In this document: positions 4,817 to 64,000 of the stretch, piece after piece
How the letters are laid out: each line of letters starts with the position of its first letter
Position numbering within the stretch: position 1 is the first letter of the stretch
From: Candidatus Nanoarchaeia archaeon
GTDB taxonomy: Archaea; Nanobdellota; Nanobdellia; Pacearchaeales; GW2011-AR1
Assembly: GCA_035548435.1 (NCBI GenBank)
Contig: DASZSY010000003.1
Span: 5,311-69,310 of the forward strand
DNA length: 64,000 nucleotides
Direction of reading: 5' to 3'
Notes under the pieces: model-generated
What the model saw: only the letters and a program-made list of their open reading frames with translations
The model's database searches: none
What the model was told of the DNA's origin: nothing
Made by a program: the position numbers and the translations under genes

Positions 4817-5737
4817 ATGTTTTTGACCCTTCTAGTTATTGTAGTTGGTCTTTGTCTATTCGAAATAATAACTAGCGTTGACAACGCAATAATTAACGCA
4901 GATGTTCTATCCACAATGGATAAGAAAAACAGAAGGTTGTTTCTTATATTTGGAGTTATAGTAAGTGTATTTATTGTTCGTGGACTTCTACCTTGGATAA
5001 TAGTCTGGATAGCCAACCCTCATCTTGGGCCCTGGACTGCTTTAATCTCAAGTTTTAGTGCAGACCCTGCAATAAAAGAATCTGTGGAATCTTCTGCTCC
5101 AATGCTTCTAATAGCCGGAGGAGTATATTTGATATTTTTGTTTATGCATTGGTGGTTTGTTGAACCAAAAACCTATGGACTTGTTGGAGAAAGATTTGTT
5201 CATAGACAAGCAATTTGGTTCTATTCAGTAGTTTCATTAATATTAGCAATAATAGTCTGGCTTGCAGTAAAAATTCACCCTTGGATGGCATTTAGTGCAG
5301 TTATAGGTTCAACCGCTTTCTTTATTACCCATGGTTTCAAAGTAAACGCAGAAGAAAAAGAAAAAGACCTTAAGAAAAAACACCTATCGGATATGAGTAA
5401 AATTGCCTTCCTTCTTGTAATTGACTCAACATTTTCAATAGACAGCGTTCTAGGAGCATTTGCATTTACATTATCAGTTCCACTAATCTTCCTAGGTAAT
5501 GGAATTGGGGCAATAGTAGTTCAACAATTGACTGTTAGAGGAGTTGACAAAATAAAACAATATGTTTATTTGAAAAACGGAGCAATGTATTCTATACTAT
5601 TCTTAGGTTTAATTATGACTTTTGACTCTTTTGGAGTACATATTCCAGAATGGTTGTCTCCAATAGTTACAATCACAGTTGTAGGTTATTTCTTTTACAA
5701 ATCGCATAAAGCAAAAATTGAAAATATATTAGATTAA
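4817..5737 (+). CDS. TerC-superfamily / DUF475-like integral membrane protein
   Basis: About 8 TM helices; N-terminal FEIITSVDNAIINADVL resembles the conserved SVDNA element of TerC/DUF475 proteins. Confidence 0.45.
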   Translation: MFLTLLVIVVGLCLFEIITSVDNAIINADVLSTMDKKNRRLFLIFGVIVSVFIVRGLLPWIIVWIANPHLGPWTALISSFSADPAIKESVESSAPMLLIAGGVYLIFLFMHWWFVEPKTYGLVGERFVHRQAIWFYSVVSLILAIIVWLAVKIHPWMAFSAVIGSTAFFITHGFKVNAEEKEKDLKKKHLSDMSKIAFLLVIDSTFSIDSVLGAFAFTLSVPLIFLGNGIGAIVVQQLTVRGVDKIKQYVYLKNGAMYSILFLGLIMTFDSFGVHIPEWLSPIVTITVVGYFFYKSHKAKIENILD

Positions 5738-50877: not shown

Positions 50878-52429
50878 TCTTTATTTCCTCCTCATCTCCA
50901 AAATCAAGAACCTTGAGTTCTCTTGTTTTCAAATTAAGAATGGGTACCTTTGCAGGATCAGGAATATTTCCAACTTTTTCTTCGAAAGGAGTCTGTGCCT
51001 GCCAGCAACTTCCAGTTATAATTAAAACACCATTATAACTTTCTATATCTAGTCTGTGAACTTCTCCTGTACATAGTACATCTGGAACTTCTTGTATAAC
51101 TAAAGAATCACTTTCCTTATTTGGAATATAGGTTACTTCTCCGTGTGTTGGAGCTAAATGTCTTCTTTTAAGCATGTGTCTTACTGCTTTAGCTGGAGTT
51201 CTGTGTGCTTTAATTTCTCGCAGTTCTTGAATTTCATTTATGAAAGCGTGAATACTTGCTCCATGATACATCAAGACCTTAAACTCTTTATCTCCTTCTA
51301 GTATCTTAACAAGACAAGGATTAGTTACTAGAACAAGATTATCAAATCCGTATAGTTCTGGAGCATAATTTTTATCAATTATTGGCTGTGGTTCTGCAAC
51401 TCTTGAAGCGTCGTGCTGCCCTGGACACATGAATATTGTTATGTCTTTAGGAATCCTTCTTATGTAAGATGCAAGCAAAGCATATTGTTCTTTCATACTT
51501 CCAAGTTTCAAAAGTTTTTCTTGTCCAGGGAAAATTCCAACCCCATCAACATTATCTCCTGTAAAGAAAACATATTTTACTTTCTTTGCCAGTTCATCTC
51601 CACTATTTATCCAATTCAAGAAATTATTAAAACTACTTTCAAGATGTCTATCGCTACCTGCGTGAACATCAGATAAGAAGGCTACACAAACCTCTTCATT
51701 AAATTTAACTTTTTCATTAATGAATGAGTCTGGGAAGAAAATGTCGTGAATAAATGTAAGGTCTTTATTTCCAGATGCTCTTACTCCCACAACATCGTCT
51801 AGTTGAAGTTCATTTGCTATAGCAAATAACTCTGCATTGTCTACCTTAACAAGACCATTTATAGTTCCTGTTAAATCTTCAAATTTAATTATAAGATTTT
51901 TATTTTTAGTCATTCTTTTTTCAGTCACCATTCCAATAAAACTAAAGAGCTGTCTATCTGATGAAACCTTGTTTAATGCAATCAAGTTTTTCAGTGCTGG
52001 TCTATTCATAAGAATTCTTTGAAGCATCTGGTATCTAGATCTAAAGTTTCCAACAAAGTCTGCAACTTCAAGCTTTTTATCTGCCTTTGTATTAGCATAA
52101 AATAATCTATAGTTTTGACTGTTTTTCTTTACTATTTCAGGCGTCTGTTGTATTTTTGTTTCTCTTTTAACTTCAATATTTATTCCAAGTTTAACAAAAA
52201 CACTTTCAACAAGACTCTTATCTGTTCCCGGTAGTTTGGAAATAGACTGATGAGATATATTCTTAGTTAGGTTGGATTTAGTTATTATTTTTTGTCCTGC
52301 TGATTGTTCGAGCTGTGCAATTAAATTTTTAGCCTCATTTGTGTCTGCAATATTTGAAACCAAGTCAAATATCTCTTTTTCTAAAAGAATTCCTTTTTCC
52401 CTTAAATAAGAAAGCACCTCGGAGTTCAT
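50867..52429 (-). CDS. polD1: DNA polymerase II (PolD) small subunit DP1
   Basis: Calcineurin-like phosphoesterase motifs FLSDVHAGSD, GDNVD, GQHD; overlaps DP2 by 11 nt. Confidence 0.85.
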   Translation of the reverse strand: MNSEVLSYLREKGILLEKEIFDLVSNIADTNEAKNLIAQLEQSAGQKIITKSNLTKNISHQSISKLPGTDKSLVESVFVKLGINIEVKRETKIQQTPEIVKKNSQNYRLFYANTKADKKLEVADFVGNFRSRYQMLQRILMNRPALKNLIALNKVSSDRQLFSFIGMVTEKRMTKNKNLIIKFEDLTGTINGLVKVDNAELFAIANELQLDDVVGVRASGNKDLTFIHDIFFPDSFINEKVKFNEEVCVAFLSDVHAGSDRHLESSFNNFLNWINSGDELAKKVKYVFFTGDNVDGVGIFPGQEKLLKLGSMKEQYALLASYIRRIPKDITIFMCPGQHDASRVAEPQPIIDKNYAPELYGFDNLVLVTNPCLVKILEGDKEFKVLMYHGASIHAFINEIQELREIKAHRTPAKAVRHMLKRRHLAPTHGEVTYIPNKESDSLVIQEVPDVLCTGEVHRLDIESYNGVLIITGSCWQAQTPFEEKVGNIPDPAKVPILNLKTRELKVLDFGDEEEIKNAG

Positions 52430-53631
52430 AGGTCTATTGCCTTATCAAGTATCTCCTTTGCTTTTGTTTTTATTTGTGGAGAAAGCATGAGTTTTATTTC
52501 TCTTGTTCTTCCCTGCCTTCCCTTACTTATGACTCTCGCATTTATTATTCCAAGCATGTCAAACTCTGCAATTATATCTGAAACTCTTCTCTGAGTTAAA
52601 ACCTCATTTCTAGTTTTTTGACAAAATTCCTGATAAACATTATAAACATCTCCCGTAAATATTTCCTCAACTTCTTTTTTATCATCTAAATTCATTATGG
52701 CCTTTAAAACAAGTTGAAATTGCTTAGGTTCGCTTTCAATTATATCAAGCATTTTATCTCTCTCAATCTTTTGATTAGCGGAATCTATGTGTGTTTCTTC
52801 TATTTTCTTTTTTCCATCTCTTTCAGCTAGTTCTCCTGCAACTCTTAATAAATCTAAAGCTCTTCTAGCATCTCCATGTTCTCTGGCAGCAAACGCAGCA
52901 CATTTAGCAATAACTCCCTCATCTATAGCTCCTTCCTTAAACGCAATCTCTGCTCTTTCTTTTAATATGTCTTGCAGCTGCAGAGCATTATATGGTGAAA
53001 ATACAAGTTCTTCTTCTCCAAGTGAACTTCTTACTCTAGGATCTAGGTTATCCATAAATGTCAAACTGTTACTTATTCCTATAATACTTATTTGAGCATT
53101 TTTAAGTTCAGTATTTAGCCTTGTAAGTGTGTAAATAAAGTTGTCATTTATTTTTTTAACTGCCTGATCTATTTCATCTAAGACAATAAGTATAATCTGT
53201 TTCTTTTTATCAATCATTTCAATAAATCTAGAATATACCTGGTCTGTAGGAAGTCCCGTAGCTGGAACAGTTCCACCCATTTCGTTAATTAATTCAGCTA
53301 AAATTCTATATTCAGTATCAGAAACTTTCTTTAATTTACAATTAATATATGTAAAAACAAGTTCATCTTTGTTCATTTGCTTCATTTTATCAATTAATCT
53401 ATTTCCTACATGCTGAACAGAAAGTGTTTTTCCAGTTCCAGTCTTTCCATAAATGAAAAGATTACTAACTCTTTCTCCTCTTAAAGCAGGAGCAAGAATT
53501 GAAGCAACAGATTCTATTTGATCATCTCTATGAGGTATTGTTTCCGGAGTATAGTTAGACTGAAGAGCAGATTTATTCTTAAATAATCCAGAAGAAGCAA
53601 TTGAATCAAATAATTTATCAATTTTATCCAT
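52426..53631 (-). CDS. cdc6: Orc1/Cdc6 replication initiator
   Basis: AAA+ Walker A GKTGTGKT, Walker B LDEID, C-terminal winged helix; 4-nt overlap with DP1. Confidence 0.9.
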   Translation of the reverse strand: MDKIDKLFDSIASSGLFKNKSALQSNYTPETIPHRDDQIESVASILAPALRGERVSNLFIYGKTGTGKTLSVQHVGNRLIDKMKQMNKDELVFTYINCKLKKVSDTEYRILAELINEMGGTVPATGLPTDQVYSRFIEMIDKKKQIILIVLDEIDQAVKKINDNFIYTLTRLNTELKNAQISIIGISNSLTFMDNLDPRVRSSLGEEELVFSPYNALQLQDILKERAEIAFKEGAIDEGVIAKCAAFAAREHGDARRALDLLRVAGELAERDGKKKIEETHIDSANQKIERDKMLDIIESEPKQFQLVLKAIMNLDDKKEVEEIFTGDVYNVYQEFCQKTRNEVLTQRRVSDIIAEFDMLGIINARVISKGRQGRTREIKLMLSPQIKTKAKEILDKAIDL

Positions 53632-54014
53632 AAATATTTTATATAAAATCTTATTATAAATGTATGTGTGTTTGAGGCATCATTTCCACTGAAAGGTTCT
53701 CTTTTCTCGAATAAAATTAATTATTAAAATAAAAAAATAATGAAAACACAGACACCTCTGTTTCTATTGGAAAATGAAAACTAAAACCTTCCAAGTTAGT
53801 ATTAACACGAACTTATATTACTATATATAATATATATAATATATAATATAAATATTTATAATATAAAATTAAAGAAAAAGAAATTTCAATTTTTCTTTTT
53901 AAATGTTTTTGTTATTTTCCATGTGAAATAATAGGGTGTGGGTGTTTGTAAAAAATATTTATCTATATAATGTAGTAAAGAAACATTTATATATCGCTTT
54001 CATTAAACTACGCT
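53632..54014. other. Predicted chromosomal replication origin (oriC): AT-rich unwinding element flanked by ORB-like dyads
   Basis: 383-bp non-coding region immediately upstream of orc1/cdc6. TTCCACTGAAA (53684-53694) is preceded by GT tract TGTATGTGTGTTTGAGG. TTCCATGTGAAA (53917-53928) is followed by GGGTGTGGGTGTTTG. They flank an almost pure (TA)n tract at 53812-53870. Confidence 0.55.
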
Positions 54015-58163: not shown

Positions 58164-58475
58164 ATGCCTAGACTATCAGAAAAGAAAAAAACAAAAATAT
58201 CAGAACAAATTCTGTATTATTTGTTCAGTTGCGCTCCAGAGTCTAAATTTACTTCAGAGATAGCAGAAGAGATAGTACGAGACGAAGAATTTGTTAAAGA
58301 TTTATTGAAAAAACTCTTTGAAAAGAAGCTAGTGGTATTAGTTTCTAAGAATTCTTCTGGCGTAGAATATCAAAAACGTCAACGCTGGCGTCTTTCAAAC
58401 CAAGCATATGAAGTGTATGTCAGTAGACAACAGTCTTTAGTTAAAAGACAGCCTTCTTTTCAACAAGATCTTTAA
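58164..58475 (+). CDS. Small winged-helix-like protein
   Basis: EQILYYLFSCAPESKFTSEIAEEIV...LVVLV resembles a wHTH. Confidence 0.35.
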   Translation: MPRLSEKKKTKISEQILYYLFSCAPESKFTSEIAEEIVRDEEFVKDLLKKLFEKKLVVLVSKNSSGVEYQKRQRWRLSNQAYEVYVSRQQSLVKRQPSFQQDL

Positions 58476-58564: not shown

Positions 58565-59209
58565 ATGGATCCAATCAAAGAGGCATTCACAAAAGTTAGA
58601 CAAGATATTTCAGATTTAAAGACTTCCATCTCATTTTTAATGCAAGAAATAGAAGATATTAAACGAACTCTTAATGAACAAAAAAACACAACAATTAAGC
58701 CTATTCTAACCTCCCAAATAAGTGAAATTCCAACAAACCAACAAACAGATTCTGATAAAGTAGCTTTATACGGTCTAAAAAGCCCAAATACTCAATTTTC
58801 CAGTGGAAATAGGGGGGTTCCAACAAACAGACAGACAAACCAACAAACAGACCAACAGATTCCTAGCACGTTGGCATCCACTGTACAGGCCGTTGATTCA
58901 CTGAAATTAAGCTTAAAAAACACTTTTTTGAGCCTTACAAAGCAAGAAAGAGAAGTATTTTTGATGCTTTATGATCTCGAAGAACGAGGTTTTACCGTCG
59001 ATTATCCTTTGCTGGCGCAAAAACTTAATCTAACAGAAAGTTCAATAAGAGATTATGTTCTTAAGATGATTCGTAAAGGTGTTCCAATACAAAAACTTAA
59101 GGAAAACAACAAAAAAGTCTTCTTATCCGTTGCTCCAGAGCTTAAAAAAATGGCTAATTTAGCTTCATTTCAATCTTTATACTCTATAAAACAGGAGTTC
59201 ATCGGTTAA
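58565..59209 (+). CDS. Coiled-coil + low-complexity (PTNQQTD repeats) + C-terminal wHTH protein
   Basis: C-terminus TKQEREVFLMLYDLEERGFTVDYPLLAQKLNLTESSIRDYVLKMIRKGV aligns with the C-terminus of 59429..60064. Confidence 0.4.
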   Translation: MDPIKEAFTKVRQDISDLKTSISFLMQEIEDIKRTLNEQKNTTIKPILTSQISEIPTNQQTDSDKVALYGLKSPNTQFSSGNRGVPTNRQTNQQTDQQIPSTLASTVQAVDSLKLSLKNTFLSLTKQEREVFLMLYDLEERGFTVDYPLLAQKLNLTESSIRDYVLKMIRKGVPIQKLKENNKKVFLSVAPELKKMANLASFQSLYSIKQEFIG

Positions 59210-59428
59210 CCGATAAATTATCATAATTTCTTATATCTTCCAATAGGAAAATATTCGTATTAAAAGTTCGCACTATATCCTCACTTCTAACACTTTCTCA
59301 CAACTCTTTTTTTACCTCAGGAGCGTTGATCTCTTAACCCCAAAGCTCCCTCACTTTTGGCGGAAAATATTAACTTTCTAATACCTCTATAGCACTCACT
59401 TTTATTGTTTTTAGTGCAAACTCTCACT

Positions 59429-60064
59429 TTATTCATGTTTTTCCTCTGTTTCAGGGGCTTTTTTCTTGCCTCTAACTCTCACTTTTGCGTATTTTGACAG
59501 TTTTTCCTTCATTTCGTCAGGTATAAACACTCTCTTTTTCCCATTTTTCTCTAAAAGCTCCTCAATTAGGCCCTCACTCTTCTGTTTTATCGCATTTATT
59601 TGCCCTCTTACAGTTGATCTCTCTTTCCCGAGAAGAAGTGCTAAATCTTCATAACTCAGCTTCATTTCGCTCTGTAAAAGTGTAAATATTATTAATCTTT
59701 CATTTGAACTTAAACTCTTCAAAAAATCAGAAAAATTGCCTGTTTGAACAGGTGTTTGAACACCTTCTTGAACAGCTTGGACAGCTGTTTGTTTGCCCAA
59801 AACAGCCGAATTTTTCAACAGCTGTTTGTTTTCAGCGTTCATTTCTACCAGATCAATTCCCTCTCTTAGCGAGTCCACCTCTGTTCTAATCGACGATAAA
59901 TCTCTTTTTATTTCAGAAAGTACATCAAACAGCTGTTTGTCGGTCTCATCAAGGTGTTTAATCCACTTTCCAACCTTCTCAATATCTTCCTTAACCAAAG
60001 AAAATGATTTCTTAGTTTCTTCCTCTAATTTTTTATTGTTCTTACCAAATAACCATCTAAACAT
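59429..60064 (-). CDS. Paralogous coiled-coil + QTAVQAVQ low-complexity + wHTH protein
   Basis: SSNERLIIFTLLQSEMKLSYEDLALLLGKERSTVRGQINAIKQKSEGL, homologous to the 58565..59209 C-terminus; convergent arrangement. Confidence 0.4.
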   Translation of the reverse strand: MFRWLFGKNNKKLEEETKKSFSLVKEDIEKVGKWIKHLDETDKQLFDVLSEIKRDLSSIRTEVDSLREGIDLVEMNAENKQLLKNSAVLGKQTAVQAVQEGVQTPVQTGNFSDFLKSLSSNERLIIFTLLQSEMKLSYEDLALLLGKERSTVRGQINAIKQKSEGLIEELLEKNGKKRVFIPDEMKEKLSKYAKVRVRGKKKAPETEEKHE

Positions 60065-60477
60065 AATTGTATACCAACATCCAGGCTATATAAATATTGC
60101 GCTTTTAGAGCTTAAAAACACATATTCCAACACATCTTCTAAGTAGTAAATAAACAGCATTATCTGTACTATTTATTGACTTAAACACCCTTATTTAGTT
60201 AACAAACAGCTGTTTAATCACCTCTAAACAGGCATTTTTTAGCCTCAAAACACCTGCCCATTTTCAAAATTTTTCTTTTCTAAAAATCAAACAAAAAACA
60301 GCACTTCCAACACCCCAAAAATAAAACCAACAGCCAGCCAAACACCCCTCAAACACCTGTTTGATCTGAAAAAACAACCTAAAAGACCAAAAAAACATGG
60401 GGAAAAGTATATAAACTAAAGAGTTTTATGGTATATATGTCCTTAATCTTCAAAAACTTGAAAGGAGGGATGAAAAA

Positions 60478-60663
60478 ATGAACACAGTTGACTGGATTGC
60501 ACGAGTTCTCGTCATTGTTGGAGCACTAAATTGGGGATTTGCTATATGGGACTTTAACCTTGTAATGACCCTATTTGGCTCAGTATCATGGCTTGTAACT
60601 TTAGTATATGCTCTAGTTGGTCTATCAGGTGTCTGGGAAGTAGTAAAGCTATTCCAGAACTAA
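60478..60663 (+). CDS. DUF378-like small membrane protein
   Basis: Two TM helices with the ALNWGF element. Confidence 0.45.
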   Translation: MNTVDWIARVLVIVGALNWGFAIWDFNLVMTLFGSVSWLVTLVYALVGLSGVWEVVKLFQN

Positions 60664-60686
60664 GGACCTAAACAACCTTTATTTTT

Positions 60687-60959
60687 TTGTTTATCTTAGA
60701 TTTTATGAAGATTATGCAAACAAAACGCTCTTTTCGCCTTGAGTTTAAGCGTCAAGTTCGTTTGGCAGTGACTGCAGCTATTGGTTTTTCCATAGCCTAT
60801 GCCTGGAGACAAGCGATTTTTGACACTTTTCAAAGTTTTGTGGTCCGTTTCCTTGATGTCCCAGAAGGACATTACCTGTCTGAAAATTATACTGCCCTAG
60901 CAATCACCCTTGCAGGAGTATTAGTCATACTTTTAACCTCTAAAGTGTTAAAAGATTAA
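60687..60959 (+). CDS. Small 2-TM membrane protein
   Basis: AIGFSIAYAWRQAIFDTF aligns with AAFGLVAALAWNGAIQSLF of the next ORF. Confidence 0.35.
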   Translation: MFILDFMKIMQTKRSFRLEFKRQVRLAVTAAIGFSIAYAWRQAIFDTFQSFVVRFLDVPEGHYLSENYTALAITLAGVLVILLTSKVLKD

Positions 60960-61009
60960 GTTAAATTAACCTTATTTTCCTTAAGATCAATCTGAAAGGA
61001 GGGTAAAAA

Positions 61010-61228
61010 ATGAAAAAAGAAGTATTAGAAAAGATAGAAACCTTTGTAACTGCAGCTTTCGGACTAGTTGCAGCTCTTGCTTGGAATGGAGCAATTCAAT
61101 CTCTTTTCGCAGATGGAGGAGCATTACACTTTCTAGCTGCTGGAGGGCCTTGGGTTTACGCTGTTTTAGTCACAATTATCGCAGTGTATGTTACAATTGT
61201 AATAAGCAAGATCAAACCAACCAAATAA
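61010..61228 (+). CDS. Small 2-TM membrane protein (paralogue of 60687..60959)
   Basis: See previous feature. Confidence 0.35.
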   Translation: MKKEVLEKIETFVTAAFGLVAALAWNGAIQSLFADGGALHFLAAGGPWVYAVLVTIIAVYVTIVISKIKPTK

Positions 61229-61229
61229 A

Positions 61230-61364
61230 ATGGCAAAAAAGAACACCTCAGCTATCCTTTCAGTTATAGCAGGAATATTGGTCCTTGTTTTCCCATCTTT
61301 TTTGGCATGGGCAGTTGGACTTTATCTTTTGATAACTGGAGGCCTAGAACTACTAGGCAAATAA
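61230..61364 (+). CDS. Mini membrane protein (44 aa), not in ORF track
   Basis: Hand translation gives MAKKNTSAILSVIAGILVLVFPSFLAWAVGLYLLITGGLELLGK; it starts 2 nt after the previous stop. Confidence 0.3.
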   Translation: MAKKNTSAILSVIAGILVLVFPSFLAWAVGLYLLITGGLELLGK

Positions 61365-61429
61365 AAGCAAGTCATAAATTACTTGCTTAAACTTTTTATT
61401 TATTATTAAAACTTTCAGCATACACCAAT

Positions 61430-61442
61430 AGTTCGCATTAAT
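61430..61442. repeat. Dispersed intergenic motif AGTTCGCATTAAT (copy 1 of approx 7)
   Basis: The same or near-identical 13-mer occurs at 61651-61663, 62567-62579 (AGTTCGTATTAAT), 62495-62508, 59254-59275, 62003-62015 and 63203-63215 (TTCGCTTAATAT variants), always intergenic. Confidence 0.4.
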
Positions 61443-61782
61443 CGCATTTTTCTTAATTTTTTATTGCCTTCTTAAATCTTTATCAATCCTTTAATAGTTC
61501 TAAAACCTCTGTTTTTTGGAGGTAGATCATGGCAAAAAAAGCAAAACCAGCAAAACCACAGGATGCCCAACAACCTGCACCAACACCAGCAAACTAATAA
61601 TTTAGTTGGTAAAACAACATAAAAACTGCTTTATTTTTATTCATTTTACAAGTTCGCATTAATTTTTACCCCTTTCCCCTTCCAAAGAACAATTACCTTA
61701 ATAGTCTAGGAGGCGCGAAGCGCCGACTCGCGCCGACCTTCCAGAACCAAAAGTATATTAAGTTGAAGGTTCTAAATAGAAA

Positions 61783-61989
61783 ATGACTTTACTAACTAAG
61801 ATCAAAGAAATTACTCTAGTAGATTGGATTTTCATCCTTCTAGGAGTGGCTAGCTTAATTGTCTCAATTCTAGCTTATATTCATGCAAATGATGCAATAA
61901 CTCAGGTAAATAATCTTTATACTTCCGGCAATAATTTAGTATCTAATACTGGGGACAGCTCATTTGTGCTTGCCACCATTGGTCAATAA
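61783..61989 (+). CDS. Small membrane-anchored protein
   Basis: One TM helix. Confidence 0.3.
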   Translation: MTLLTKIKEITLVDWIFILLGVASLIVSILAYIHANDAITQVNNLYTSGNNLVSNTGDSSFVLATIGQ

Positions 61990-62077
61990 GGGTTATTTTA
62001 CCATTCGCTTAATATATCTTGTGCGAAGTTTTAGCCTATTTTAGGGTCTTTTTGACCATAATTGGAGAAAGCTAGTA

Positions 62078-62398
62078 TTAAACAGACAACTCTCTAAGAG
62101 CTTTATTATCGTTCAAATGTTTTTCAGATAAAATCCTTTGTAAATTAACATCTTTTTTGTTATATATTGTAAACTTCAATTTTTGAGTTGATTCTACCTT
62201 TTTACTAGAGTTTAGATCTGCTAATTTCTCTAAACCGGGAATTCTAACACTTACATTACCTGTCTTATCTTTCGCAGTTAAAACAGATAGCTCAAACTCA
62301 ATAGGGCCCTGAATAGTAAATTTTTCAGGTGTAGCAGAGTCTATTTTTTCCAGAGTTTTTTTGATAAAGTCTTGCAAATCCACATCTTCTTCGTTCAT
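62078..62398 (-). CDS. Hypothetical protein
   Basis: 106 aa; no motif. Confidence 0.3.
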   Translation of the reverse strand: MNEEDVDLQDFIKKTLEKIDSATPEKFTIQGPIEFELSVLTAKDKTGNVSVRIPGLEKLADLNSSKKVESTQKLKFTIYNKKDVNLQRILSEKHLNDNKALRELSV

Positions 62399-62715
62399 AA
62401 AATCATAAGCTAATAGTGACTAATAAATCTTTCTATATAGCGTAATCTTTCTAAAATCTCTTAAAACTTTCAGCATAGGATTAAACAAGTATAAAGTTCG
62501 TTTTATTATATTAAAATTATAGCGTAATGTTTTAGCTTATGATAGAAATGTTAAGCATAGACAATAAGTTCGTATTAATTAAAGTTTTAATATCTTTAAT
62601 TTGGAACCAAAATAGAAAAGATAAAAAGAAGAAGAGTTTAGACATTATATACCTTCCTAGTTGTATTTTCAACTATAGCAATCTTTAAAACCTTTAGAAA
62701 ACGTTTAAGATTTTA

Positions 62716-63057
62716 ATGAGGTATGATTCTATTCAGACAGTTAAGGATTATCTTGATGCTGTTGCTCTTTTAAAACAAGGGACAGTAGGAGATGACTATA
62801 GAGAAGCCTCAAAACATCTTGCTTCTTTAGCTTCAAAGTTGATATTTAGAGCAATAGGTCATCAAGTCACTGGAAGAGGTCATAGAGATTATAAGCTAGA
62901 TGGGGAAGTTTTACTAACTAGGTCAGTAACTCCTTCAACTCCAATAAAAGATTTACCTATAGTACTTGTTGATCCTGGAGATTATGATCTTGGATCAAAA
63001 GTTAGCATATTTGCAAATAACCACTTAAGTGACAGAGTTGTTGCTATAGCAAGTTAG
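62716..63057 (+). CDS. Hypothetical protein
   Basis: 113 aa; no motif. Confidence 0.3.
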   Translation: MRYDSIQTVKDYLDAVALLKQGTVGDDYREASKHLASLASKLIFRAIGHQVTGRGHRDYKLDGEVLLTRSVTPSTPIKDLPIVLVDPGDYDLGSKVSIFANNHLSDRVVAIAS

Positions 63058-63278
63058 AATTATCTTTTAAGAAAAGCTGAAGCTACCCAAGCAAATGCTA
63101 CAATGCAGAATCCAACTATGGTTCCTGCGAAAGCCTGCTTTGCAGTTATTTTTTGTGCCTTCATATCCTAAAGAAGAATTTATCTCTTTTAAAGCTTAGC
63201 ATGTTCGCTTAATATCTTAAGCAATGACAGCAATCTTTAAGCTTTGGCCTTATAAATTCAACAAAATCAGGTATTTTC

Positions 63279-64000
63279 TTACTTTTTATCGTTTTTTATC
63301 TGCTTATACAAATGGTCAAAATATTCATTTTTATTGGTTTTAGACATTCTTTCAACAATCAATTCAGGGGTTGATCTTGCAAGTTTACCTAAAACAGGAT
63401 TGTGGTTTACTATAAGCTCAAACTTTTCATTAAGTCCTATTGCTTCTATTCCATCAATTCTAGTATTTGCAGGCTGTTGTTTCTGAAGTTCCTGCCCTAA
63501 GTGAGTAGCGATGACCATATAACATCCCCTAGGAACAAAATACTCTATAGTTGCTTGCATTATTCTACCAGCAACTCCAGGTTCTGTAACTGCCTCAACT
63601 TCATCAGCTAAAATAATCGTTTGTTTTCCAGGTTTTATTGTTGCAAGCTGTGTTAAAAGGGTTTCAAAAGCTCCCTTACTTGCAGATCCTTTGTTTTTGG
63701 CAAAGTAATATACTTCAGAGAAAATAGGGGTCTTTATTCTGCCTTCAGAAGGAAGGCCAAGGTTAGATTGAACAATTATTTGTATTATGTGTTCAAGAAG
63801 AGTAGTCTTTCCTCCACTATTTGCTCCAGTAAGTATTGAACAAGGGAATTTCTCTGAAAGGTGGAAGGATATTGGTTCTGCCCTGTCAATTAATTTATTT
63901 TTAGATTCTTCAATAACTAATTCTGTTGATATTTCTATTCTATCGTTGTTGTTTGCAATTTCTCTTCCTATTCCTCCAACGAAATCAAGGTAAATTAGGT
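63279..64000 (-). CDS. MutS-family ATPase (MutS2-like), N-terminus beyond window edge
   Basis: Hand translation upstream of the track ORF stays in frame with no stop: ...CSILTGANSGGKTTLLEHIIQ (Walker A) ...TIILADEVEAVTEPGVAGRIMQATIEYF...MVIATHLGQEL (Walker B and TH motifs). Confidence 0.6.
   Translation of the reverse strand, partial: LIYLDFVGGIGREIANNNDRIEISTELVIEESKNKLIDRAEPISFHLSEKFPCSILTGANSGGKTTLLEHIIQIIVQSNLGLPSEGRIKTPIFSEVYYFAKNKGSASKGAFETLLTQLATIKPGKQTIILADEVEAVTEPGVAGRIMQATIEYFVPRGCYMVIATHLGQELQKQQPANTRIDGIEAIGLNEKFELIVNHNPVLGKLARSTPELIVERMSKTNKNEYFDHLYKQIKNDKK

Follow-up and report, generated by a model that had tools for sequence, protein, structure and literature searches.

A conserved intergenic GTTCG box beside three helix-turn-helix genes of a DPANN archaeon, a possible operator array of a local regulon

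The 64,000-nucleotide stretch analyzed here (the window; contig DASZSY010000003.1 of assembly GCA_035548435.1, Candidatus Nanoarchaeia archaeon, positions 5,311 to 69,310 of the forward strand) carries in a gene-sparse region a short repeated motif, hereafter the box, whose consensus in relatives is AAA-GTTCG-YWTTAAW. The box is real, conserved, intergenic, orientation-biased, unstructured, restricted to one neighborhood and placed non-randomly relative to TATA boxes. It may well be the best-conserved part of a protein-recognized DNA signal, namely an array of operators or upstream sites serving a local regulon in an origin-proximal neighborhood of Pace/Woesearchaeota-type DPANN archaea; we hold this reading tentatively, as the best explanation of the sequences. 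Binding by a protein, the identity of the binder and the sign of the regulation are, for their part, what we infer. A preliminary description of the region, made from the sequence alone, had offered a shared promoter, a regulator operator, a small structured RNA family or miniature repeats as candidates. Among these the regulator operator is best supported, namely by orthologous conservation, intergenic enrichment, palindromes, the neighborhood of three helix-turn-helix (HTH) genes and a subset of copies directly 5' of a transcription factor B (TFB) recognition element (BRE) and TATA box.

The box is clustered, conserved and intergenic

The G+C content of the window is 33%. The exact 13-mer RGTTCGYATTAAT occurs in it three times (61430, 61651 and 62567), and allowing at most one mismatch gives four matches against 0.21 expected. 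For the looser core TTCGYWTWAW, eight matches were found against 2.8 ± 1.65 expected, a count reached in 0 of 100 shuffles. Seven of the eight are on the plus strand between 59254 and 63213 (59254, 61432, 61653, 62004, 62497, 62569 and 63204); the eighth is on the other strand in coding sequence, and no further ones occur elsewhere in the 64 kb. The preliminary description counted about seven copies of the 13-mer within 4 kb. The clustering is indeed beyond chance, but only the three copies named above are exact and the rest are degenerate (AGTTCGCACTATA at 59266, CATTCGCTTAATA at 62003, AGTTCGTTTTATT at 62495 and TGTTCGCTTAATA at 63203).

Relatives were gathered as homologs of the neighboring MutS2-like protein and of hth211, an HTH protein encoded beside the cluster, and further loci came from pattern scans, one per collection, of genomes, metagenomes and viruses (loci carry numbers preceded by L). 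In the closest relative, L003, whose neighboring proteins are 73-80% identical, the copies at 59266, 61431/61652, 62003 and 62496/62568 are kept in the same place and orientation; those at 59254 and 63203 are not conserved. The open reading frames (ORFs) between the conserved copies are partly different in L003 and the window, and the non-coding blocks are 87-100% identical against about 75% for coding DNA. An operator would be expected to persist at orthologous non-coding positions while its flanks drift, and the four window copies do so in L003. Clusters of boxes or units are also present in L005, L029, L033, L054 and L064, where the MutS2-like protein is only 43-56% identical, in L177 and L178 (fetched through hth211) and in a dozen metagenome contigs. 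At one site, an ORF of 68 aa in the window (61783-61989) and one of 112 aa in L003 (7694-8032) are unrelated, both apparently encoding membrane proteins. The type A element upstream and the type B element downstream, described below, are kept around them, and conservation at this site is higher outside the coding DNA than within it.

Several dispersed copies in a small region might also be left by a selfish miniature inverted-repeat transposable element (MITE) or be a chance AT-rich repeat, the former having been among the original candidates. Such an origin is barely credible. The copies have no terminal inverted repeats, target duplications or fold-back, a repeat finder returned direct families only and no inverted ends of the units, the positions are orthologous across genomes diverged to about 45% protein identity, and shuffles never attain the observed count.

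Across 19 loci, 76 of 96 full matches (79%) are intergenic, compared with 26.6% of intergenic DNA (p=9e-27). The downstream neighbor of these 76 copies is a co-directional gene in 51 cases and a convergent one in 21; four copies have no downstream gene. Every clustered locus has a block of genes for an Lhr helicase, w103, hth214 and hth211, the last two being convergent. The 15 loci with this block hold 93 copies in 204 kb (0.455 per kb, maximum of 2-9 per 5 kb), against 15 copies in the 935 kb of 53 related loci that lack it (0.016 per kb, maximum of 0-2 per 5 kb), a comparison that is biased by the choice of the metagenome loci through the unit pattern. The loci free of that selection (L003, L029, L033, L054, L177 and L178) agree, their clusters lying beside the block. 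A similar density elsewhere, which the preliminary description had named as the outcome that would speak against it, was not observed, the box being about 28-fold denser beside the HTH block than in related loci lacking the block. Intergenic enrichment and confinement to a would-be regulon, which an operator would be expected to show, are both seen.

The block itself varies in occurrence. In L023 (6924-11097, compared with 52426-65003 of the window) the cdc6, PRC and p145 genes directly adjoin the MutS2-like gene. The segment Metallophos-Lhr-w103-hth214-hth211-island is missing in L023 or inserted in the window, and the block therefore behaves as an accessory segment. A viral or mobile origin was considered and rejected. 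The unit pattern gave chance coding matches only in IMG/VR, and comparison of the island proteins with PHROG and PADLOC returned weak HTH-type matches, one weak holin match and nothing convincing.

Boxes are assembled into unstructured units

Often the box closes a unit of some 70 nt, as its final element (S3). The order in the unit is S1, (A)GCTTAAT or GCGTAAT; about 13 nt; S2, TTCGCTTAAA(A/T)C; the spacer TTTCAGCAT; N8-9; and the S3 box. The portion formed by S2 and the spacer reads TTCGCTTAAAAC-TTTCAGCAT, and S2 is itself box-like (TTCG+TA). The G-to-G spacings of S1-S2-S3, counted by hand on the L088 unit only, are 20 and 31 bp, about two and three helical turns. Taken together, all intergenic GTTCG occurrences give AAAA-GTTCG-Y-W-T-W-A-W, with A at 53-62% in positions -4..-1, T at 73% in +7 and A at 77% in +9. 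The window holds two full units as a tandem 82-nt duplication (repeat family D1; 62439-62520 and 62521-62600), the first of which has a 9-nt insertion in its spacer.

Two companion segments of the box had been listed before. The first, AAACTTTCAGCATA, is exact at 62464-62477, its other copy lies at 61409-61422 rather than one base earlier as described, and it is also kept in distant relatives. The second, AGCGTAAT(G/C)TTTTAGC, matches at 62522-62536 only, and as written it is not significant (six matches with at most three mismatches against 7.2 expected). The sequence common to the segments at 62440 and 62522 is not this companion but GCGTAAT, with its place as first box in the tandem duplication; the segment at 62023-62036, assigned to the same group, does not belong to it and is part of the separate conserved element type B.

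Dyad-symmetric or phased multi-site forms, also expected of an operator, are present. Besides the S1-S2-S3 triplets, a perfect palindrome over the hth214 stop codon (Table 1) is kept as TTCG(T/G)TTAACCGA(A/G)CAAC, also given as TTCG(T/G)TTAACCGAAC, in most of the 10 relatives compared. Type B holds an inverted pair of half-sites at 62003-62030 (TTCGC-N13-15-GCGAA), and L029 has a box pair in everted arrangement.

Folding of eight unit strands gave z values of -0.37 to +1.38, i.e. the units are unstructured, as expected for a signal in duplex DNA. Rfam at the gathering threshold found two tRNAs only over the window, and at E values up to 10 just two chance-level matches in 59150-63300. The proposed small structured RNA was therefore discarded, there being no Rfam match and units that fold no better than shuffles; the covarying hairpin at 59320-59349 is a separate feature. 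Two further candidates also fell. In types A and B the box could pair with CGAAC/GCGAA further downstream, but this pairing is not kept across loci. An opposite-strand micro-ORF on TTTCAGCAT (ATG-CTG-AAA..., 'MLKVLRE.RKIT'), whose substitutions had looked codon-like, is interrupted by early stops in L087, L094 and L095, and its frame continues antisense into genes that are unrelated.

Units at least as unstructured as shuffles would also suit a single-stranded binding site. The box could then be an RNA-level signal in the 3' untranslated region of the upstream gene, concerned with termination, processing or stability and read by an RNA-binding protein or a nuclease. The units do start either at the stop of the upstream gene or no more than about 30 nt from it (GCG-TAA is the stop in L003, L054 and L064), and they are pyrimidine-rich with CTTTC repeated. 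Known archaeal termination signals are oligo-U, however, and GTTCG, the most conserved part, is not U-rich. Copies between divergent genes (L005, 15645) and the inverted and everted pairs fit duplex recognition better, and past the DUF3096 gene a separate hairpin with a T5 terminator already lies 5' of the unit. All this makes action at the RNA level rather improbable.

The position of the units at stop codons, their direct orientation and their confinement to one locus would fit recombination sites as well. The units would then be junctions of exchangeable one-gene cassettes, as in an integron, an Xer module or a tandem-integration array. The genes between units do vary among related genomes, while the units stay constant, as does the order of type A followed by type B. 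Integron attC arrays and clusters of attC sites lacking integron-integrases (CALINs) have been reported also in Archaea (PMC9668308). The box array resembles them in that direct repeats separate single variable genes in one locus. It differs in that the units have no inverted-repeat or hairpin potential, that gene-less tandem units exist (in pairs 60-72 nt apart) and that no integrase or recombinase appears within +/-10 kb in the gene tables of five loci, although a CALIN needs no integrase. The R' core of attC is GTTRRRY, with which GTTCGYW is incompatible. An Xer site would need a second inverted arm, which single boxes do not have. A resemblance of GTTCGCATTAA to the E. coli Xer/dif sequence GGTGCGCATAA was likewise dropped, as inspection of all copies gave no second arm and only type B is roughly palindromic. 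We consider cassette boundaries very unlikely.

Relation of the box to the core promoters of the clade

The regions 5' of every ORF with 120 aa or more, taken from about 80 related loci, show a sharp peak of TATA-like hexamers that begin at -29/-28 relative to the ATG, and the clade is therefore essentially leaderless. An A-rich BRE occupies -7..-3 of the hexamer. On a promoter matrix of the clade, true promoters reach a median score of 8.0, whereas the TA half of the box has a median of -0.04, which is background-like, and 0 of 106 copies reach 7. GTTCG occupies the place of the A-rich BRE relative to this TA half. The box is thus similar to an archaeal core promoter in its TATA-like 3' half and in the near-canonical TATA of S2, but different in having GTTCG for the A-rich BRE, a background matrix score and the wrong spacing to start codons.

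The local genes have promoters of their own. The 68-, 113- and 34-aa genes each show a TATA at the clade distance before the ATG, which is GTATATTAAG at 61753 for the 68-aa gene; the promoter of the 113-aa gene scores 11.3 (62684) and that of the 34-aa gene 9.7 (63193, minus strand). The suggestion of a shared core promoter is not supported: a separate canonical TATA precedes the ATG by 28-29 nt in each of the genes at 61783 and 62716, and the TA half of the box is background. No gene starts 33-34 nt after a box; the distances are 36-39 (three cases), 47-55 or more than 70 nt.

A subset of the copies adjoins canonical promoters. In 16 of 106 copies a canonical promoter hexamer (score at least 4.5) starts 17-21 nt past the G, compared with 4.6% in a control set of 12,600 intergenic positions (p=3e-5). 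These promoter-abutting boxes lie 1-2 nt 5' of the BRE, at about -48, and in eleven genes the ATG follows 47-55 nt past the box. The window representative of this class is the copy at 62567 only (score 7.3 at 62585/6, predicted start at about 62613). In addition, 26 of 107 copies have a TATA hexamer, the S2 box, whose start is exactly at -25 relative to the G of S3; nearly all of these come from homologous S2-S3 units, and the peak is therefore not independent evidence.

The same geometry may be read to mean that the boxes are themselves specialized promoters, in which either GTTCG replaces the BRE one base 5' of a TATA-like hexamer or the box is the start region served by the S2 TATA 18 nt upstream. 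Transcripts made in this way would be short and either non-coding or leadered, corresponding to types A, B and C and to the leader of a 22-aa ORF. TTCG is always one base ahead of a TA-rich hexamer, in S2 as in S3. The S2 TATA is near-canonical, and the rigid 18-nt spacing puts the clade start (hexamer + 28/29) on the C/G of GTTCG. Three conserved downstream blocks start at or just past a box, each ending within 45-110 nt in a hairpin or T-run. Against this stand the background-like matrix scores, the lack of any protein gene at the canonical +33/34 and the pyrimidine-rich tract at the BRE place of S2, which moreover scores higher on the opposite strand. Type A elements often occur without a box, and it would be unusual for an alternative TFB to serve a single 5-kb island with fewer than 10 promoters. 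A specialized promoter of this kind appears unlikely, though it deserves to be taken seriously.

Some observations on gene expression at the locus may be added. Unlike the essentially leaderless genes of the clade, a few local genes (60478, 61010 and 61530) carry a GGAGG Shine-Dalgarno sequence. Two small ORFs are unannotated: a 22-aa lysine/proline-rich micro-ORF (61530-61598) with a strong GGAGGT ribosome-binding site, absent from L003, and a 34-aa hydrophobic peptide ORF on the minus strand (63060-63164), whose high-scoring canonical promoter is the one at 63193 given above. The degenerate box copy at 63203-63215 overlaps the upstream region of the latter and is probably not functional. In all three tRNAs seen, the TATA box ends 22-23 nt before the mature 5' end, which suggests that tRNA transcripts are near-leaderless. 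At tRNA-Thr(CGT) (L001 13115-13201; window-equivalent 65830-65916), TTCGCATTAA ends 3 nt before the tRNA 5' end, between the canonical TATA and the predicted start. A link of this sequence to tRNAs was not upheld; it is absent upstream of the orthologous tRNA of L003 and of both window tRNAs, and is probably there by chance.

Candidate regulators beside the cluster

An inspection of the conserved block indicated w103, hth214 and hth211 as the most economical candidate readers of the box. w103 matches the EarA family PF07381 with E=0.0094 and 16.2 bits, under the 22-bit cut-off; seven of nine w103 orthologs give similar sub-cut-off matches (best E=0.0037), and the ArnR model NF041016 matches with E=3e-4. 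For hth211, the best solved-structure match is the Lrs14-like regulator PDB 6cmv (E=0.0048), and weak matches to TIGR02937 (sigma-70-ECF, E=4e-4) and Sta1 (E=0.0017) were found. Its family is very conserved and comprises 2125 homologs, the best 120 of these 2125 being 64-98% identical. The architecture of hth214 is the same as that of hth211, with an N-terminal coiled coil and a C-terminal winged helix.

EarA is a small winged-helix protein encoded near archaellum (arl/fla) promoters in Methanococcus and Thermococcales, and its short, asymmetric motifs are located 9 nt upstream of the BRE in up to three repeats (PMC10665913). The present system is alike in that a subset of boxes abuts the BRE, triplets occur and the weakly EarA-like w103, of 103 aa, is encoded alongside. 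It differs in that EarA sites are TACATA-type, unrelated to the AAGTTCGYWTTAAW of the box, that the EarA match of w103 is under the Pfam cut-off and that most boxes are not BRE-proximal; no archaellum genes are present in the neighborhood gene tables. Lrs14/Sta1-type regulators of the Sulfolobales are winged-helix proteins that bind A/T-rich promoter DNA adjoining or overlapping the TATA box. The structure match and the Sta1 match of hth211 are in line with such a protein, as is a box that fuses a TTCG core to a TATA-like tract, but the matches are weak (E about 1e-3) and the DPANN proteins have a long N-terminal coiled coil and a Q/T-rich linker.

Repeats are also seen in and around these genes. 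The Q/T/N-rich linker of hth214 (58715-58857) is encoded by CCAACAAACAGAC-type repeats, and similar ones are in the hth211 upstream region at 60292-60344 (families D2 and D8). The palindrome-containing repeat ACAGCTGTTTG occurs three times inside hth211 (59781-59942; KQLF/KQTAV codons) and once upstream (60200-60216); in L033 one copy directly adjoins a GTTCG box. Within 59280-59484, CTCAC(T)TTT (minus strand AAAAGTGAG) is found five to six times past the hth211 stop and once in its C-terminal codons (KVRV). These repeats are kept in all relatives, and one of them follows the 9-bp hairpin at 59320-59349.

A putative replication origin near the block

The HTH block lies near a cdc6/orc1 gene (52426-53631, minus strand), and the intergenic region next to that gene (53632-54014) looks like a replication origin. 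Boxes similar to origin recognition boxes (ORBs), namely CCTTTCAGTGGAAATG as the reverse complement of 53680-53695, TTCTATTGGAAAATG near 53761 and TTCCATGTGAAAT near 53917, flank a pure A/T stretch at 53815-53875, which is adjoined by AGTTCGTGTTAAT (53801-53813, minus strand), a sequence one mismatch away from the motif. That the motif itself is an origin recognition box was rejected, the ORB-like boxes beside cdc6 being different in sequence.

This location raises the question of a nucleoprotein or centromere-like array, in which clustered half-sites close to oriC would load a coiled-coil HTH protein that serves segregation or chromosome organization, with any effect on transcription being secondary. 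The cluster is 5-9 kb from the cdc6-adjacent region with its ORB-like boxes and AT-only stretch, next to which the near-copy lies; the synteny cdc6-PRC-Lhr-HTH-island recurs in other contigs, and the adjacent proteins have long coiled coils. Like parS and plasmid iteron-type centromeres, the boxes are clustered short sites near an origin and beside genes of DNA-binding proteins. Unlike them, they have an intergenic and orientation bias and a fixed TATA-linked spacing, which would not be expected for a centromere, and no ParA/SegA-type partition ATPase is seen in the neighborhood gene tables. The prospect of such an array is remote.

Proposed mechanism and its weaknesses

If the box is an operator, a sequence-specific winged-helix regulator would read the TTCG half-site and the adjacent A/T tract. 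The sites would take the form of single boxes, of palindromes (TTCG-N6-CGAA at the hth214 stop; type B) and of phased S1-S2-S3 triplets. At a box 1-2 nt 5' of the A-rich BRE of a co-directional promoter (about -48), the bound protein might help or hinder the recruitment of TFB and the TATA-binding protein. It might be a roadblock where the box coincides with the predicted start point, 18 nt past the TATA-like S2.

Several points weigh against this proposal, in addition to the selection of the metagenome loci and the homology of the S2-S3 units behind the -25 peak. Only 15% of the copies abut a canonical promoter, and most copies are neither promoter-abutting nor S2-linked, which is the main weakness of any single mechanism. 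A convergent gene faces about 29% of the copies having a downstream gene (in the window, 59266 and 62003), so that at these places an operator would call for a transcript not yet annotated or for a role other than at promoters. Nor does an operator account for the conserved spacer TTTCAGCAT. The link between the box and the HTH genes is one of synteny only, and the family matches of w103, hth214 and hth211 are all below curated cut-offs.

Companion elements and features of the locus

Two conserved elements at the locus, the companion hairpin and the GC-rich element of type A, are real and separate from the box (Table 1). In the hairpin at 59320-59349, 87.8% of cells are paired across 10 loci, compared with 71.9% in shuffles, and five of its nine pairs are altered on both sides across these loci, i.e. 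the changes are compensatory. The type A 17-mer GAGGCGCGAAGCGCCGA is invariant in 14 of 15 aligned copies, the exception being L003 with GGCA for GAA. The GC-rich element always precedes a canonical TATA by 8-14 nt, whether a box lies upstream or not. An identical 17-mer is present in 51 unrelated IMG/VR viral contigs, which suggests that it is a convergently reused stable hairpin and not a sign of shared ancestry; we take the hairpin to be comparable to the very stable GCGAAGC-type hairpin. Over 60 nt, type B and its L003 counterpart share 86.7% identity, compared with about 75% for the flanking genes.

Table 1 Box copies, units, companion elements and candidate regulator genes in the window
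Feature	Position	Strand	Remarks
w103, 103-aa winged-helix protein, weakly EarA/ArnR-like; candidate regulator	58164-58475	+	
hth214, coiled coil, Q/T-rich linker, C-terminal winged HTH; candidate regulator	58565-59209	+	Sub-threshold HTH_11 and sigma-like matches; syntenic in cluster loci
Perfect 14-bp palindrome ATCGGTTAACCGAT over the hth214 stop codon; full-site box TTCG-N-TTAA-N-CGAA	59201-59214		Conserved
Weak box copy TTCGTATTAA	59254-59263	+	Not conserved; missing from the L003 alignment
Type C box copy AAAGTTCGCACTATAT between the convergent HTH genes	59263-59278	+	L003 identical; same place in L054, L086, L088 and L177
9-bp hairpin (59320-59328 paired with 59341-59349), then CTCACTTTT	59320-59358	+	
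hth211, coiled coil, C-terminal Lrs14/Sta1/sigma-r4-like winged HTH; candidate regulator	59429-60064	-	
Unit ATTAAAAC-TTTCAGCATA-N7-AGTTCGCATTAAT (S2-like TATA box, conserved spacer, S3 box)	61405-61442	+	Orthologous to L003 8190-8150
Box copy AGTTCGCATTAAT ahead of the type A element	61651-61663	+	Aligned to L003
Type A element, GC-rich end GAGGCGCGAAGCGCCGA..GCGCCGACC; hairpin GGCGC-GAA-GCGCC at 61712-61724	61682-61738	+	
Type B element, box-like ATTCGCTTAATATAT inverted relative to GCGAAGT, then TTTTAGCC..T5	62003-62054	+	Variants in L029, L054 and L064
Full unit 1: GCGTAAT (62440-62446), CTTAAAAC-TTTCAGCATA (62460-62477), box AGTTCGTTTTATTA (62495-62508)	62439-62508	+	85% identical to L003 7287-7231
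Full unit 2, tandem copy: GCGTAAT (62522-62528), AAATGTTAAGCATA (62546-62559), box AGTTCGTATTAAT (62567-62579), then canonical BRE/TATA at 62585	62521-62594	+	
Degenerate box copy TGTTCGCTTAATA	63203-63215	+	L003 has GATTGCTTAAAAT at the same place

Implications

A bolder interpretation would combine the boxes formed of GTTCG and a TATA-like tract with the two highly conserved coiled-coil winged-HTH proteins, weakly sigma-region-4- or Lrs14-like, into a dedicated promoter-specificity system at a conserved origin-proximal locus, in which an accessory factor and not TFB alone selects a private class of promoters and conserved non-coding 'sockets' are fitted with swapped small genes. We regard this as distinctly improbable on the sequences at hand. 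Were it true, the sockets (the S1-S2-S3 units and types A and B) would have persisted over hundreds of millions of years, with the small genes between them being exchanged. If the pattern of conserved sockets and variable genes holds, the locus would be a small model for the turnover of accessory genes in reduced genomes.

The core-promoter rule of the clade (leaderless genes, TATA at -29/-28 and an A-rich BRE) aids annotation. To our knowledge, gene regulation in uncultivated DPANN archaea is almost entirely unexplored. The analysis supplies a cis-element (about 15 bits) that can be tested, along with three candidate regulators, of which hth211 belongs to a family of more than 2000 members, and a defined target locus in many Pace/Woesearchaeota-type genomes. 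The cis-element may be an entry point into the gene regulation of DPANN archaea.

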